From contig JBAYVT010000001.1 in NCBI GenBank assembly GCA_041674405.1, positions 103,967-167,966 of the forward strand: a stretch of DNA of 64,000 nt, in the 5' to 3' direction. The notes below the pieces were generated by a model. It made no database searches, was not told the origin of the DNA, and saw nothing but the letters and a program-made list of their open reading frames with translations. How positions within the stretch are numbered: the first letter of the stretch is position 1; every line of letters starts with the position of its first letter. This DNA is from Patescibacteria group bacterium. Its GTDB lineage: Bacteria; Patescibacteriota; UBA1384; XYA2-FULL-43-10. A program made the translations under genes and the position numbers. Below, piece by piece: positions 43,508-49,266 of this stretch.

Positions 43508-43975
43508 ATGCAACAAAAAACGAAAAAAGATACTATTGAAGAACGCAATGGCGGATTCGCCTGTGCGCATTGTAAGAAATGGGTAAATTTTTCTGACACG
43601 ATCGGAACACATCATAGAAATCATTGCCCCTATTGCCTCTGGTCCCTGCACGTTGACGACAAAGTTTCCGGCGACCGCAAGGCAGACTGCCATAGTAGCA
43701 TGGAGCCGATTGGATTGACGCTCAAAGAGGAAGGAATCGACAAATACGGGAACAAGAAACAGGGTGATGTGATGATTATTCATCAGTGTAAAAAATGTAG
43801 CAAAATTTCAATCAACCGCATCGCCGCCGATGATGGCAATGAAAAAATATTAGATCTATTGAACTATAAAATTGATTCTAAAACAAAAAAAGATCTCAGG
43901 GACTCTTCTATTGTTGTACTCAATCAATCAAATTATCCAGAAATTAAAACAGCTCTAATCGGTAAGAACATTTGA
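43508..43975 (+). CDS. RNHCP domain-containing protein
   Basis: CAHC...HHRNHCPYC...CKKC: the eponymous RNHCP motif with flanking Cys pairs. TATAAT lies 7 nt upstream of the ATG. Confidence 0.75.
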   Translation: MQQKTKKDTIEERNGGFACAHCKKWVNFSDTIGTHHRNHCPYCLWSLHVDDKVSGDRKADCHSSMEPIGLTLKEEGIDKYGNKKQGDVMIIHQCKKCSKISINRIAADDGNEKILDLLNYKIDSKTKKDLRDSSIVVLNQSNYPEIKTALIGKNI

Positions 43976-44575
43976 GGGAGTTTCTTCTAGGTGTTTGATG
44001 TCGTTAATAGTCTTTATGGAAATTTTTTTGTTTTCATCAATCAGTACGACACTAATGCTGGTATTGGCAATTTCTGTAAGCTTGCTGCCAATTTCTTGAT
44101 CAATGTAACAAAATAAATTCTTGAGCCAAATCCCGTGTGTTACAGCTAAAATTGTTTTATCCGAATAATCATTTGCGATCATCTTAATAAATTTCTTGAC
44201 ACGTATAAGCACGTCAGTGTCATTTTCGCCTCCCTCTGGGCAAAAATCTTCCTTAGACAGGCCCGAACTTAATCTCGCCTCCTCACGCAGCACCGACAAT
44301 TTACCTTCAAATATTCCGCTTCCTTTCTCTCGAAGCAAAGGCTCGTAAATAACCGGAAGGTCTGAGTGATATTTCAAAATTTCTTTAATAGTATCTTTGG
44401 TCCTTTTTAGATCGCTACAAAAAGCGATGTCAAAGTGTTGGTCTTTTAATCTCTCTCCAACTTTTCTCGCTTGTTCGGCTCCGATTTCGGAAAGTGGGTT
44501 ATGGGAATGTCCCTGAACAATTTTTTGGTCATTGTAGCCAGTATGTCCATGGCGGACAAATACGAGATTAATCAT
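43955..44575 (-). CDS. Histidine phosphatase family protein (phosphoglycerate mutase-like)
   Basis: N-terminal LVFVRHGHTGYN (RHG motif), downstream catalytic His (VTHG). Confidence 0.85.
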   Translation of the reverse strand: MINLVFVRHGHTGYNDQKIVQGHSHNPLSEIGAEQARKVGERLKDQHFDIAFCSDLKRTKDTIKEILKYHSDLPVIYEPLLREKGSGIFEGKLSVLREEARLSSGLSKEDFCPEGGENDTDVLIRVKKFIKMIANDYSDKTILAVTHGIWLKNLFCYIDQEIGSKLTEIANTSISVVLIDENKKISIKTINDIKHLEETPSNVLTD

Positions 44576-45041
44576 TGAGTTCCTTAATATATTTCACCAG
44601 CCAAAAGGTTTCGTCTGATTTGTTAGTAATTTTGCGATCGCTCAAAAATTTAAACCCGTTTTTTAGATAGAAGGCCCGTGTTCTATTATATGGTTCCCAA
44701 TCTTCTTTGTCAGATAACGTTTCCACAGTAATCTTTTTGACTTCCAGATTTCGCGCTGCCTTCTCAACCTTTTCAAGTAATTGCCCACCTACTCCCTTAC
44801 GATGAGAATTCAAGTTGACACCTAGCCAGGTAATTTTAATATCCCCCTCCTCGGATGAAAAAGTAATAAATCCAACAATTTTGCCATCATTTTCGGCAGC
44901 AAAACCATGATGCAATTTTAGATCAAGCGGAATTTCGTTCGAGATTGCATAATCATCAAACCAACCGGGATTTAGGGATTTTACAACCTTCATTACTCCG
45001 TCATGGTCGATTAGCTCAATCGGCCTAATTTTTATAGTCAT
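44568..45041 (-). CDS. GNAT family N-acetyltransferase
   Basis: ...HRKGVGGQLLEKVEKAARNLEVKKITVET... acetyl-CoA-binding core. Confidence 0.7.
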   Translation of the reverse strand: MTIKIRPIELIDHDGVMKVVKSLNPGWFDDYAISNEIPLDLKLHHGFAAENDGKIVGFITFSSEEGDIKITWLGVNLNSHRKGVGGQLLEKVEKAARNLEVKKITVETLSDKEDWEPYNRTRAFYLKNGFKFLSDRKITNKSDETFWLVKYIKELND

Positions 45042-48000
45042 TTATTTAATCCTCGAGATTCCGATCCAAATTTTCTCACCGTCGATACAGAATTCTTCTG
45101 AACCTTCCGGGTTTTCGATTTTTCCGTCAGTGCTTTCTTTCGCTAGTACTTCTTTGGCAATAATTTCCGACATTGATTTCATCACTTTTTTCAATACCTC
45201 TCCCGATGTAGCGTAATTTACAACTATCCTGTTCTCAACTTCAAACCCGGACTTTTTGCGTAGCGATTGGATGTTGCGGATGAGTTCCCTGGCAACACCT
45301 TCGGTTTTTAATTCGTCAGTTAATACCGTATCAAGCTCGACGCCTGTCTCCCCTACTCCGGAATTCTTATCTCCTTCGTCAATATGAATATCTCGTGCGT
45401 CGACATAAACTACTTTTTTCACATTTACTTCTTCAGCAATGATTGTTTCCAAATCTTCAGACAATTTTTTACCGGAATATTTTAGAAGAGCTAAAGGCTG
45501 GCGAACTTTTATTCCCGCTTCCGATCTTTTGGCTAAGCCAGCTTCAACAATCTGCCGTGTTTCTGCCATCTCATCCAGAACAGAAAGATCAAATTCTTCC
45601 GGTGCGGGGAAATCGGCCAAGTGTACCGATTCCGGATCACTTTCTTGCTTTAGGCCCTGATACACGGTTTCGGCGAACATCGGAGTAAACGGCGCCAAGA
45701 GTTTCGATAAGCCGATCAAAACTTCATACAAAGTATGATATGCCGATTCTTTATCGCTGTCAGACTCCGATTTCCAAAATCTGCGGCGTGAGCGGCGGAC
45801 ATACCAAGTAGAAAGTTCGTTTATAAAATCAAGAATCGTATTTGCCGGTCTGTAGGTATCATAGTTATCCAATGATTCGGTGATGGTTTCGGTAAGTTCG
45901 TTAAACTTCGCAAGGATCCATTTGTCTAGAATGTTTGTAGCTTCTGTTTTTCCGCTCGGCTTCCAACCGTCGATTGATGCGTACATAGAAAAGAATGAAT
46001 AAACATTCCAAAGCGTGATAAATAGGTTGCGGGAAACAGACAAAACTTCTTTTTCTGAAAAAAGCTTCGGCTCACCGGGCTGATTCACAGAATAAAGGAA
46101 GAAGCGGACGACATCGGCGCCAACTTTCTCAAATTCAGCCATCGGCTCGACAATGTTTCCCTTCGACTTCGACATTTTTTGCCCTTTTTCGTCTAGAATA
46201 TGTCCTGTCGAGATAACATTTTTAAAACAAGAATTATTTTTTACAATCGTCGAGATCGCGAGAAGCGTGTAAAACCAGCCTCGGGTTTGATCGATCGCTT
46301 CGCAAATGAAATCAGCCGGGTACTGCTCAGCAAAGAGTTCGCTGTTTTCGAATGGATAGTGATATTGGGCGTATGGCATGGAGCCGGAATCGAACCAGAC
46401 ATCCATCACTTCTGGAGTTCGTTTCATCGTTCCGCCGCATTTGCAGGTGAATTCAACCTCATCAACAAATGGTTTGTGAGGATCGAAGGCAGTACCGTCA
46501 GAATTTAGATAAAATTTATGAGATAATTCATGATCAGGGCGTTCGTGTTGGAAGTATCCAGAATAATCCAAGTTCCCTAAAATCATGTTCAATGCACCAT
46601 TAATGGCCCCGTGTGCAACAATAACGATTGTCTTACCAGGATATTCTTTTCCAATCTTGGCTAAAAATTCTTTGACCCTTTCTACAACATCAGCTCTCGT
46701 TTCCCCCGTGGTGCCAAGCTTAAAATTAAATCTTTGTTCAGGAATTTTCTCAGTCACCAAATAATCTTGAAAATCTTTCCTGTCAAGTCTTTGTTCGGGT
46801 GTAAGCTCATTCCATTCGCCGGAGTCCAGCTCAATGATTCTGTCGTCGAATATCAATTCCGCATCTACATGTTTCTTAACGATTTCTGCGGATTGCTTTG
46901 CTCTCAACACCGGAGAAGATATTATTATGTCAACTTTGTCCTTTATTTTTTTTGCGGTTGTTTCCACCTGAGTCACACCCTTCTCTGTAAGAGGCCATTT
47001 ATCAAGCGCTTTTGAATCAATATCAAGAATGTTTCTCTCCGTTTCACCGTGTCGGACAAAGATCAATTTCGTTACCTTAGTATTGCTCTCGTTGAAATCC
47101 ATAAAATTGCCAACGACTTTTTTCTCGTCACACTTGTCGCAAGTCCAGACCGGGAGCGGCGTCCCCCAATATCTGTCACGGGAAATTGCCCAGTCATTGA
47201 TATTTTCGAGCCAATTGCCAAAACGGCCGTGCTTTAAGTAGGCTGGGTTCCAGTTGATTGTCTCATTATTTTCAAGAAGCTCATCTCGAAGTTTCGACAT
47301 CGCGATATACCAAGAATCCTTGGCAAAGTAGAGAAGCGGTGAGTCACAACGCCAGCAGAACGGATAATCATGGGCGAACATCTCTTTTTTAAATAATATT
47401 CCACGTTTTTCAAGATCGAGTTTCACTTCTTTGTCGGCGTCTTTGACAAAGCTTCCTTTGCCAGCGCCGGCAAGCTCCGTCCCCTTTTCATCAACGGTCT
47501 TTAAAACCTTGATGCCGTTCTTGCGAAAACCAAATTCGTAATCATCCTCACCAAATGCCGGGGCAATGTGGACGATGCCGGTGCCGTCTGAATCGGTGAC
47601 AAAATCGGCGACAATCAGCTTGTAAACTTTCTCTCCACCTTCAGAAAATTTATCTCCGTCCGGATAAATCGCTTCGTAATCCGGTTTGTCGGTGAAAGAT
47701 GGGGCAGCAATTTCCGAACCGGTCAGCTCTTTAATGACATTTGCACCAGGCAAAACGGCATCGAGACGGCTTTGCGCAAGTATATACTTCTCTCCGTCTT
47801 TTTCTGCCAAAACGTATTTGATATTCGGGCCAAATGCTAGAGCGGCGTTGCCTGCGAGCGTCCAAGGCGTTGTCGTCCAGACAAGAAAATACGCATCTTC
47901 ATGATTTGATTTAACCTTGATATAGACTGATTCCTCTTCAACATTCTTGTATCCCTGGGCAACCTCATGAGAAGATAACGCCGTACCGCAGCGCGGGCAA

Positions 48001-48563
48001 TATGGCACGACTTTGTGGCCCCTGTAAAGCAAACCTCGTTTTTCAGCTTCGGATATCACCCACCAGATCGATTCGATATATTTGGAATCGTAGGTGACAT
48101 ATGGATCTTTCATATCGAGCCAGTAGGCCATGCGCTCGGTCATCTTTTCCCACTCGGATTTGTAAACAAAAACCGACTCTTTGCAAAGTTTATTGAATTT
48201 GGCAACCGAAGCATTTTTGTCGCCCGGAACGATATTCTCGATATCGCCCTTGCCAGAAATACCGAGCTCCTTCTCCACCTGAAGCTCTACCGGAAGCCCT
48301 TGCGTGTCCCAGCCTGCTTTGCGTCGGACATTGTAGCCTTGCATAGTTTTATATCGGTTGAAAAGATCTTTGAATGCGCGGTTTAGAACATGATGAATAC
48401 CAGGCTTGCCGTTGGCTGTCGGCGGTCCTTCATAGAATACAAAATTGCCTTTCGGGCTATCCTTCCCAAGGCTCTTCTCAAATGTTTTATCCTCTCGCCA
48501 AAATTCGAGAATTTTCTTCTCTTCTTCCGGTAAATTAAGTTTTGGATCAACCTTTTTGAACAT
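45042..48563 (-). CDS. ileS: Isoleucine--tRNA ligase, type 2 (eukaryote/archaea-like), carrying an inserted ~210-aa histidine-phosphatase-fold domain
   Basis: GPPTANGKPGIHHVL (HIGH region), CP1 editing domain, KMSKSKGN. The RHG-phosphatase insert (LIFVRHGETERN ... IVIVAHGAING) lies between the two zinc knuckles (WTCDKCDEK and FTCKCGG), at roughly nt 46476-47108. Confidence 0.9.
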   Translation of the reverse strand: MFKKVDPKLNLPEEEKKILEFWREDKTFEKSLGKDSPKGNFVFYEGPPTANGKPGIHHVLNRAFKDLFNRYKTMQGYNVRRKAGWDTQGLPVELQVEKELGISGKGDIENIVPGDKNASVAKFNKLCKESVFVYKSEWEKMTERMAYWLDMKDPYVTYDSKYIESIWWVISEAEKRGLLYRGHKVVPYCPRCGTALSSHEVAQGYKNVEEESVYIKVKSNHEDAYFLVWTTTPWTLAGNAALAFGPNIKYVLAEKDGEKYILAQSRLDAVLPGANVIKELTGSEIAAPSFTDKPDYEAIYPDGDKFSEGGEKVYKLIVADFVTDSDGTGIVHIAPAFGEDDYEFGFRKNGIKVLKTVDEKGTELAGAGKGSFVKDADKEVKLDLEKRGILFKKEMFAHDYPFCWRCDSPLLYFAKDSWYIAMSKLRDELLENNETINWNPAYLKHGRFGNWLENINDWAISRDRYWGTPLPVWTCDKCDEKKVVGNFMDFNESNTKVTKLIFVRHGETERNILDIDSKALDKWPLTEKGVTQVETTAKKIKDKVDIIISSPVLRAKQSAEIVKKHVDAELIFDDRIIELDSGEWNELTPEQRLDRKDFQDYLVTEKIPEQRFNFKLGTTGETRADVVERVKEFLAKIGKEYPGKTIVIVAHGAINGALNMILGNLDYSGYFQHERPDHELSHKFYLNSDGTAFDPHKPFVDEVEFTCKCGGTMKRTPEVMDVWFDSGSMPYAQYHYPFENSELFAEQYPADFICEAIDQTRGWFYTLLAISTIVKNNSCFKNVISTGHILDEKGQKMSKSKGNIVEPMAEFEKVGADVVRFFLYSVNQPGEPKLFSEKEVLSVSRNLFITLWNVYSFFSMYASIDGWKPSGKTEATNILDKWILAKFNELTETITESLDNYDTYRPANTILDFINELSTWYVRRSRRRFWKSESDSDKESAYHTLYEVLIGLSKLLAPFTPMFAETVYQGLKQESDPESVHLADFPAPEEFDLSVLDEMAETRQIVEAGLAKRSEAGIKVRQPLALLKYSGKKLSEDLETIIAEEVNVKKVVYVDARDIHIDEGDKNSGVGETGVELDTVLTDELKTEGVARELIRNIQSLRKKSGFEVENRIVVNYATSGEVLKKVMKSMSEIIAKEVLAKESTDGKIENPEGSEEFCIDGEKIWIGISRIK

Positions 48564-48599
48564 AAAATGTCCTTAATTTGAAATTTTAACACTGATCTA

Positions 48600-48860
48600 T
48601 CACACTGATTAACACTGATATTAAAAAAGACCTAACACTATTATAGCGAAAGGCCAATCTTTTTAGTATGTGTTGAACTTTTCACTTTATGCTTTCAACT
48701 TTATACTGAACCGATTGAGGTACCAACCTAATCATTCTTAATTTTGGCAATTACGCTTGCCATACGGGAAGTTCTATTCACCCTTAGGGTTTTCTTCTCC
48801 CAGCTCGTCCGTTGATTGCGGACTTATGCGCTTTTTTCTTATAAATTATATATAGCACAT
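48600..48860 (-). promoter_or_regulatory. Candidate T-box-like leader with promoter upstream of ileS
   Basis: Minus strand shows TTGAAT-17nt-TATATA, then a short hairpin GTCCG-CAATCAA-CGGAC with AUC-A in the loop, a GGCAAGCGTAATTGCC hairpin, and ATTAGGTTGGTACC (13/14 to the T-box core ATTAGGGTGGTACC; TGGT could pair with tRNA-Ile ACCA). No clear terminator or anti-RBS. Confidence 0.3.
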
Positions 48861-48948
48861 CGCTCAGATATATTCAATGAGCTATTGACATAACCAATTA
48901 TTTATGTTACCCTAAGATAAAGAAAATCGACTGCTAGGGGGTCTTACC

Positions 48949-49197
48949 ATGTCCAAAGCTAGTCGTATCGTTTGCGGGATCATCGCATGTCTGCTCCTCT
49001 ACCCGACTTATCGGGTCGGAGCGGTTGCCCTGGATTCAATGTACCGTTACTCGCTACTGAGCGAGCTCGACCTGATGAAGATGCCGCAGGTCGACAGATT
49101 CATCCTGGAGATGCAGTACGGGTGGCCTTTCCTCGTGGCCCTGGCCCTTTTCGTAGGAGTCCTGACCTTGGCGTACAAGGCTCTCTCACGTTATTAG
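48949..49197 (+). CDS. Small GC-rich membrane protein (82 aa, 2 TM), hypothetical
   Basis: AGGGGG RBS, TTGACA-type -35 upstream, own terminator. ~55% GC. Confidence 0.55.
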   Translation: MSKASRIVCGIIACLLLYPTYRVGAVALDSMYRYSLLSELDLMKMPQVDRFILEMQYGWPFLVALALFVGVLTLAYKALSRY

Positions 49198-49234
49198 GGG
49201 TTTGAGTCAGATGAATTGGCCACAAGAGCTCGGG

Positions 49235-49266
49235 CGCCCCACTAGTTGGGGCGTTCTTGCTTTATT
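49235..49266 (+). terminator. Rho-independent terminator
   Basis: CGCCCCA-ctagt-TGGGGCG followed by TTCTTGCTTTATT. Confidence 0.7.

Follow-up and report, generated by a model that had tools for sequence, protein, structure and literature searches.

In this study, we examined the leader of ileS in a 64,000-nt stretch of DNA (hereafter the window) from a Patescibacteria group bacterium (GCA_041674405.1, contig JBAYVT010000001.1, positions 103,967 to 167,966 of the forward strand), and we concluded that it is probably an isoleucine-specific T-box riboswitch, divergent and minimal in type, by which transcription termination is controlled. The leader is housed in a 385-nt intergenic gap between the ileS ATG (48563) and a divergent open reading frame (ORF) of 82 codons (48949-49197, plus strand), and the coordinates of its elements are collected in table 1. 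The conclusion is based on homology to T-boxes, on covariation of all helices, and on an antiterminator and a terminator that were shown to be mutually exclusive; from these we infer that the leader binds tRNA, senses its aminoacylation, and terminates transcription in vivo. An earlier note on this DNA had proposed a reduced T-box with an Ile specifier in a terminal loop before ileS, and this proposal was supported by reciprocal covariance models, covariation, and a conserved antiterminator and terminator. The product of the regulated gene is a true IleS, with Pfam matches to tRNA-synt_1 (E=2.5e-116), Anticodon_1, and DUF5915; its close relatives are named isoleucine--tRNA ligase by NCBI, and the nearest relatives of its N-terminal part are from Patescibacteria/Candidate Phyla Radiation (CPR), including a Berkelbacteria metagenome-assembled genome (77%), with Christensenellaceae more distant.

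Relatives of the leader were gathered from the genome collection, from one metagenome pattern scan, and by protein-to-contig look-ups. The architecture of the window leader was observed in five further independent lineages, namely L082 (IleS 76%), L092, L083, L090, and the L001 lake group with its variants L084 and L089; the metagenome pattern scan yielded only near-identical members of this lake group. Four other CPR loci (L004, L005, L006, and L007) carry ileS T-box leaders with a standard discriminator, and L040 is an intermediate. No leader was found at ten other CPR ileS loci, among them L081, L088, L091, L093, L002, and L003.

The search with the Rfam T-box model RF00230 that the earlier note had suggested as a check was negative, and support for the T-box reading comes from elsewhere. 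Among the CPR leaders with a standard discriminator, L007 (65 bits, E=3e-12), L006 (56 bits, E=7e-10), and L005 (38 bits, E=3e-5) gave significant scores below the gathering score of 93 bits (Rfam 15); L004 was not scanned against RF00230 in E-value mode. The alignments of these three leaders delete 76 Stem I positions, which indicates that their Stem I is short. Because RF00230 scores no window-type leader, two covariance models were built: R1 from L082, L092, L083, and L090, with the window excluded, and R2 from the standard-discriminator CPR T-boxes L004-L007 only. With E-values that are rough, because calibration was short and the sequences were few and related, R1 matched the window at 48713-48839 on the minus strand (112.7 bits, E=4.6e-23), its sole match in the 64 kb, and also matched the L001 group (65-72 bits) and, at the sites marked by RF00230, L007 (36.4 bits, E=3e-5) and L006 (35.2 bits, E=6e-5). 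Subject to the same limit, R2 matched the window at 48714-48839 on the minus strand (36.7 bits, E=4.2e-5), aligned end to end, as well as L082 (44.2 bits), L040 (32 bits), and L090 (27.9 bits); its score for L001 (16.8 bits) was not significant. By these reciprocal matches, the window leader is connected to recognised T-boxes. A spaced pattern of 24 bases, drawn from the leader, occurred once in the window and in none of 100 shuffles.

A separate observation concerns Christensenellaceae, where clear long-Stem-I ileS T-boxes with a GGUGGUACCGCG core and a terminator lie about 70-170 nt 5' of ileS (L009, L011, L013, and others). They score only 41-66 bits with RF00230 and go unreported at the default threshold because these scores are below the gathering score.

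Covariation was analyzed in an alignment of nine leaders that had been fitted to the model, in which 95.4% of cells were paired, compared with 70.4% in shuffles; 15 of the 18 modelled pairs changed on both sides, a number reached by 0 of 500 shuffles, and pairing dropped to 27-44% in slid-partner controls. A hand table checked against the raw sequences showed that IIA, IIB, A1, and A2 pair in every lineage, except for one U-U mismatch in A2 of L082. The base helix P0 pairs in all nine lineages tabulated (L005 was not assigned), with compensatory changes, and Stem I appears as GUCCG/CGGAC, GCUUG/CAAGC, UCCA/UGGA, GCUG/CAGU, GUUUG/CAAAC, GGAAG/CUUCC, or GAGG/CCUC. Both helices of Stem II covary, as do IIA (3 bp, its third pair being U.G, C-G, or G-C) and IIB (5 bp). 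In A1, the pair adjoining the bulge is U.G in the window, U-A in L082, and C-G in the others, and the third A2 pair is A-U, U-A, G-C, or C-G (e.g., A2 CAC/GUG vs. CAG/CUG).

The hairpin GTCCG-CAATCAA-CGGAC, in which the earlier note had recognised AUC followed by A, is present at 48823-48807 as an ultrashort Stem I. The AUC codon matches the amino acid of ileS and is followed by a purine (AUC-A); it occupies loop positions 3-5, with the A at position 6, which are the places of the anticodon and of purine 37 in a tRNA loop. AUC was invariant in all 11 leaders examined, and the next base is A in nine of them and C in L004 and L040. The GAAGAA and UAGAAC strands of Stem II are invariant in the window-type leaders, and in L006 and L007 the corresponding strands fall on GAA / AGUA of the S-turn consensus in the Rfam T-box model. 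By analogy, GAAGAAA and UAGAAC of the window would form the string of purines by which the codon-anticodon helix is latched (PMC7583486, PMC10651847).

Stem II is followed by a 21-nt element that was aligned by MAFFT with the CGGGUAAGCCCGUAACAGC pseudoknot of L006 and L007, and a IIA/B pseudoknot topology is predicted from sequence for the window as well. Because the stretch aligns with the pseudoknot of the standard leaders, the GGCAAGCGTAATTGCC hairpin, which the earlier note had called Stem III-like, was assigned to Stem IIB. The Stem III reading of this hairpin, written as GGCAAGCGUAAUUGCC, was rejected, since it fits IIB of the pseudoknot in both alignment and covariation. Stem III is absent: the single-stranded linker that follows stands where Stem III and its flanks would be, and AAAAUUAAG within it is aligned to the purine string that precedes Stem III on the 5' side. 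At the linker position, L004, L006, and L007 have a Stem III of -6.9 to -11.1 kcal/mol. Small linker hairpins are possible in L001 and L090; they are neither conserved nor stable.

The T-box core ATTAGGTTGGTACC, which had been placed on the minus strand about 150 nt 5' of the ATG, was located 156 nt upstream of it, and UGGUACCUCA is invariant in the six window-type lineages. The bulge reads exactly UGGUACC (48725-48719), and its U fits the discriminator base A73 of tRNA-Ile, with which it would pair; neither the window nor the 25 loci offered a tRNA-Ile gene for comparison. Pairing of the T-box UGGU with the ACCA 3' end is an established rule (PMC7778990). In every lineage the 3' strand of A2 runs directly into that of A1, and covariation is seen in the pairs that adjoin the bulge. 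The stretch from the bulge to the A2 3' strand, counted with the A2 5' strand, varies from 9 nt in L001 and 26 nt in L084 to 59 nt in the window, 71 nt in L092, 88 nt in L082, 93 nt in L083, and 107 nt in L090. The insertions in this loop are unrelated in sequence among lineages; they are often made up of short direct repeats internal to the insertion, and every one of them forms a hairpin.

The A2 loop was thus seen as a hot spot for insertions, located at 48660-48712 (minus strand) in the window, ~1216-1297 in L082, ~1340-1426 in L083, ~658-760 in L090, ~1356-1421 in L092, and 6042-6065 in L084. Within the L001 group, near-identical leaders differ by a 24-nt hairpin in this loop.

Although the earlier note had found no convincing terminator, an intrinsic terminator exists at 48655-48629 and is followed by U6. 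Its first five bases (GGCCU) comprise the whole A1 3' strand preceded by the final base of the A2 3' strand; therefore, the antiterminator and the terminator cannot coexist. The comparison of antiterminator and terminator folds that the earlier note had recommended was performed with UGGUACC held open to mimic the bound tRNA end and with the RNA ended before the terminator 3' strand. Under these constraints, the minimum free energy (MFE) structure of the window was exactly A1-bulge-A2, and the antiterminator was likewise the constrained MFE structure in L082, L092, L083, L090, L001, L084, L040, L006, and L007. The antiterminator of the window is about 2 kcal/mol less stable than the unconstrained competing fold. 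L082 and L092 share the GGCCU..AGGUC terminator frame, with a U-run and an inner stem that covaries, and L083, L001, and L084 have other terminator hairpins that start with or overlap the A1 3' strand. Overall, terminators of -7.5 to -11.8 kcal/mol with U-runs overlap the A1 3' strand in five of the six window-type lineages, and that of L040 reaches -12.0 kcal/mol; the terminator of L090 is weak (-2.7 kcal/mol). An A1, bulge, and A2 arrangement with contiguous 3' strands that the terminator reuses is thus conserved and covarying in six lineages. The earlier note had named two absences, of an RF00230 match and of a terminating helix, that together would speak against its proposal: the first was confirmed, but the second was not, and because the conserved terminator exists the proposal is not refuted.

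The Shine-Dalgarno (SD) sequence lies 49 nt past the U-tract, and no helix linking the switch region to it was found in the predicted folds; thus, we concluded that control is transcriptional, and sequestration of the ribosome-binding site (RBS), which the earlier note had also considered, was rejected for want of a supporting helix. A translational T-box as in Actinobacteria, with an alternative helix that hides the SD, is accordingly very improbable here. Class III T-boxes have been described as mostly translational (PMC10482949, PMC7583486), and pairing between CCUU of the A1 3' strand and AAGG of the SD is conceivable in principle, but U6 stands directly after the alternative hairpin of the window, U-runs stand in the same place in L082, L092, L083, L001, L006, and L007, and the hairpin ends far upstream of the SD.

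It is still less credible, and in our view barely worth entertaining, that the leader senses no tRNA and resembles a T-box by chance, being either an attenuator with a leader peptide rich in Ile codons or an autoregulatory leader bound by IleS. Such an origin would agree with the lack of an Rfam match and with four short leader ORFs of 14-23 codons; against it, these ORFs are mostly without an SD (one is preceded by TAAGG) and have no Ile run, and reciprocal model matches to recognised T-boxes together with an exact UGGUACC between covarying A1 and A2 are unexpected by chance. Leader-peptide attenuation was rejected, as no credible small ORF was found.

Compared with known systems, the leader is closest in its aptamer to the class III ileS T-boxes of Actinobacteria (Nocardia farcinica, Mycobacterium tuberculosis; PDB 6UFM, 6UFG; PMC7583486, PMC10482949), which precede the same gene and use the same AUC. 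In class III ileS leaders, Stem I is short, the specifier lies in the apical loop, and Stem II is required, and their control has been described as mostly translational (PMC10482949, PMC7583486); in TBDB, short-Stem-I T-boxes were sought only in Actinobacteria and labelled translational (PMC7778990). The likeness covers the short Stem I, the specifier in its apical loop, the absence of a distal tRNA-elbow platform, the purine-strand Stem II, a compact IIA/B pseudoknot as predicted for the window, and UGGUACC between two helices, and by this analogy an actinobacterial-type (class III) aptamer is the best reading. However, the window leader has a terminator with a U-tract where the actinobacterial leaders have an SD sequestrator and a 7-nt apical loop where theirs has 5-6 nt (PMC10482949), and it differs further in its lack of Stem III, its degenerate kink-turn (K-turn), its 5-bp IIB, its 53-nt A2 insertion, and its Patescibacteria/CPR host. 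With the class I T-boxes of Bacillota (B. subtilis tyrS, RF00230), the leader shares the logic of an antiterminator (A1, 7-nt bulge, A2) set against a terminator, the use of the A1/A2 3' strands as the terminator 5' strand, a place before an aminoacyl-tRNA synthetase gene, and an S-turn region within Stem II together with IIA/B; in contrast, it has no long Stem I, specifier internal loop, or interdigitated T-loop platform, no Stem III, no G.U at the A2 base, and no RF00230 score.

The standard-discriminator leaders L004-L007 have the same aptamer as the window, with a K-turn region, a Stem I of 4-5 bp, an NNAUCN loop, GAAGAA/UAGAAC, and IIA CGG/CCG; they also precede ileS, possess a terminator with a U-run, and are linked to the window by R1 and R2. 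Unlike the window, they retain a well-formed K-turn (GAUGA...GGAG), a GG-UGGUACC-ACG core, a short A2 loop, and a Stem III hairpin with an energy of -7 to -11 kcal/mol, and L005-L007 score 38-65 bits with RF00230. L040 stands between the two types in having a canonical IIA/B, a window-type core, and no Stem III.

The T-box-like leader of L040 (1340-1631), which has an AUC specifier and its own terminator, lies about 1 kb 5' of ileS, and the interval contains a tRNA-like sequence that is degenerate (33.8 bits with the Rfam tRNA model, no ARAGORN call), an ORF of 166 aa, and a gene for tRNA-Val. An extra ORF between the T-box terminator and ileS was also observed in L005 (~2100-2500), L090 (894-1166, GIY-YIG), and L004 (~1990-2500, HD-like motif); in these three loci, the ORF would either form, with ileS, a two-gene unit under T-box control or be a later insertion.

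Based on these comparisons, the switch may operate as follows. The nascent RNA would fold the short Stem I and present AUC-A in the 7-nt apical loop, the IIA/B pseudoknot would fold too, and the anticodon of tRNA-Ile(GAU) would bind AUC, with the purine strands of Stem II buttressing the codon-anticodon helix. If the tRNA is uncharged, its ACCA end would pair with UGGU of the UGGUACC bulge and stabilise A1 (AGGU/GCCU) and A2 (CAAUC/GAUUG), which would close over the 53-nt insertion; the terminator's 5' strand, GGCCU, would then be sequestered by A1 and A2, and RNA polymerase would read into ileS. With charged tRNA, or with none, the more stable terminator and its U6 would form, and transcription would stop.

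Several observations weigh against the leader being a working T-box. Stem III has been described as an integral and indispensable part of the T-box discriminator (PMC7583486), and none was found in the linker, with an MFE of 0.0 kcal/mol in 7 of 7 window-type leaders. A canonical K-turn (GA motif) is lacking at the base of Stem I, since the G.A is AA on the 5' strand; in the alignment to the R2 consensus, the 5' strand is AUAA compared with AUGA of T-boxes, and GA of the 3' strand is kept. Among the relatives, the 5' UGA is not preserved in L082 and L001, and it is kept in L090 and L092 (in L092, AA replaces the 3' GA). In the window and its relatives, the A2 pair that adjoins the bulge is C-G (or U.G in another register), in place of the usual G.U wobble, and the register of the bulge is ambiguous by one pyrimidine, so that it is effectively 8 nt. 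Moreover, the 53-nt A2 insertion delays closure of the antiterminator, and in the window UGGU can be caught in a local hairpin, GAAUGAUUAGGU-UGGU-ACCUCAAUCGGUUC (-7.1 kcal/mol). RF00230 gave no hit in the window at the gathering score and none at E<=10 with permissive filters over 48450-49050, and L001, L082, L083, L090, and L092 were likewise without a hit even at E<=10. No tRNA-Ile gene was found in the window or in the 25 loci; the three tRNA genes detected in the window at the Rfam gathering score all encode CCA. The closest IleS relative (L081, 79%) has no leader, its ileS directly following another synthetase gene. The rough E-values of R1 and R2 and the fitting of the pair-count alignment to the model count in the same direction.

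The missing Stem III, the lost K-turn G, the lack of an Rfam match, the large A2 insertion, and the hairpin competing for UGGU, together with a possible TG-n-TAAAAT element downstream of the terminator, would also agree with a relic that no longer senses tRNA, the terminator being constitutive or otherwise regulated and ileS being expressed through leaky readthrough or a second promoter near 48591-48583. We regard this as unlikely, because conservation extends to the codon, the bulge, and every helix at an IleS identity of only 60-77%: AUC-A and UGGUACCUCA are kept, as is compensatory pairing in Stem I, Stem II, IIA/B, A1, and A2, and the 3' strands of A1 and A2 remain contiguous and continue to overlap the terminator although the intervening stretch ranges from 9 to 107 nt. 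Thus, a transcriptional Ile T-box remains our preferred interpretation. A broader proposal is that a clade of CPR/Patescibacteria ileS leaders represents a natural minimal T-box, which would combine a class III aptamer with a terminator and a discriminator without Stem III, a canonical K-turn, and the A2 G.U, and would tolerate 9-107 nt between the bulge and the A2 3' strand; we consider the case for and against this proposal to be evenly balanced. A literature search, whose coverage did not extend to several key T-box papers, returned none on T-boxes in CPR, Patescibacteria, or Saccharibacteria.

The promoter motif TTGAAT-17-TATATA reported in the earlier note is present upstream of the leader and, by its sequence, may act as the leader promoter, with a predicted transcript start near 48842; promoter-like hexamers (TTGAAA with TATAGT or TATTGT) were also observed 5' of the leaders in L001 and L092. 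A scan with consensus promoter and terminator patterns listed neither the candidate promoter nor the terminator on the minus strand, the promoter being missed because its second hexamer does not end in T; both were identified instead by reading, folding, and comparison. The three tandem ATCAGTGT repeats (ACACTGAT on the plus strand) that had been noted before the RBS are real, but they lie at 48619-48589 rather than at 48600-48640, about 10-20 nt further downstream. The window contains five copies of ATCAGTGT compared with 1.2 expected, and three of the five are in the ileS leader. Similar repeats (UCAGUGU) precede the RBS in L082, and L092 has one partial copy. The last repeat of the window overlaps TG-n-TAAAAT (48591-48583), whose counterpart in L082 is TGTTAGAAT. 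This element is a possible extended -10 promoter for T-box-independent expression of ileS; it is equally conceivable that the repeats could be a protein-binding site.

Table 1. Elements of the ileS leader and the gene it precedes, in order of transcription (window positions)
Feature	Position	Strand	Details
Candidate promoter	48877-48849	-	TTGAAT (48877-48872), 17-nt spacer, TATATA (48854-48849); TG-n-TATATA at 48857-48849; read from sequence
ileS leader	about 48842-48564	-	Roughly 280 nt; same strand as, and 5' of, ileS
Base helix P0	48832-48830 with 48804-48802	-	AGC with GCU; encloses degenerate K-turn region (48802-48832)
Ultrashort Stem I	48823-48807	-	GUCCG/CGGAC, 5 bp; 7-nt apical loop CAAUCAA
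Ile specifier	48816-48814	-	AUC in Stem I apical loop; A at 48813 next
Stem II	48801-48767	-	Base GGGA (48801-48798)/UUCC (48770-48767); apical helix CCC/GGG
Stem II purine strands	48797-48791; 48776-48771	-	GAAGAAA; UAGAAC; conserved
Putative Stem IIA/B pseudoknot	48766-48746	-	21 nt; IIA CGU (48766-48764)/GCG (48756-48754); IIB GGCAA (48761-48757)/UUGCC (48750-48746)
GGCAAGCGTAATTGCC hairpin	48761-48746	-	IIB of the putative pseudoknot
Purine-rich linker	48745-48730	-	AAAAUUAAGAAUGAUU; 16 nt, single-stranded; in place of Stem III and flanks
T-box core	48732-48719	-	ATTAGGTTGGTACC; 156 nt upstream of ileS ATG
A1 5' strand	48729-48726	-	AGGU
Bulge	48725-48719	-	UGGUACC; followed by U 48718
A2 5' strand	48717-48713	-	CAAUC
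A2-loop insertion	48712-48660	-	53 nt, lineage-specific; own hairpin AGUAU..AUACU / GUUGAA..UUCAAC
A2 3' strand	48659-48655	-	GAUUG
A1 3' strand	48654-48651	-	GCCU; contiguous with A2 3' strand
Intrinsic terminator	48655-48629	-	GGCCU-UU-CGCUA-UAA-UAGUG-UU-AGGUC; -11.7 kcal/mol
U-tract	48628-48623	-	UUUUUU; directly after terminator hairpin
Three ATCAGTGT repeats	48619-48589	-	ACACTGAT on plus strand; between terminator and RBS
SD	48574-48570	-	AAGGA; precedes ileS ATG
ileS ORF	48563-45042	-	1173 aa; regulated gene

The ileS product itself contains an inserted domain of the histidine phosphatase type (PGAM-like; Pfam His_Phos_1, E=4.9e-31) at residues 500-679 (46527-47066, minus strand), located within the catalytic domain between two CxxC motifs and with intact RHGE and AHG motifs. 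This architecture was seen in roughly half of the top 120 IleS relatives, almost all of which are unnamed or labelled CPR/Patescibacteria, and no paper mentioning a His_Phos_1 insertion in IleS was found in the literature searched. Directly 3' of ileS (43955-45041, minus strand) are the genes of a GNAT acetyltransferase (44568-45041) and of a stand-alone His_Phos_1 protein (43955-44575), which overlap by 8 nt and are probably co-transcribed with ileS; in the relatives, ileS is followed by a GNAT gene in L081 and by a His_Phos_1 gene in L082. The divergent ORF on the other side of the leader (48949-49197) encodes a product with a hydrophobic N-terminus and no Pfam match, and a strong terminator (49232-49256) follows it.

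Structural work on T-boxes takes Stem III, the K-turn, and the A2 G.U as essential, and short-Stem-I aptamers have mostly been tied to actinobacterial translational control. A family that drops Stem III, uses a terminator, and tolerates long A2 insertions would therefore provide a direct test of which parts are needed for the sensing of aminoacylation, and, if these leaders are functional, Stem III would not be universally required for sensing the tRNA 3' end. The current Rfam model and its threshold miss a whole T-box branch, which matters for the annotation of metagenomic genomes. Functional leaders of this type would also extend tRNA-sensing riboswitches to CPR and would mean that an aminoacyl-tRNA synthetase gene remains under RNA-based feedback even in CPR genomes of very small size.

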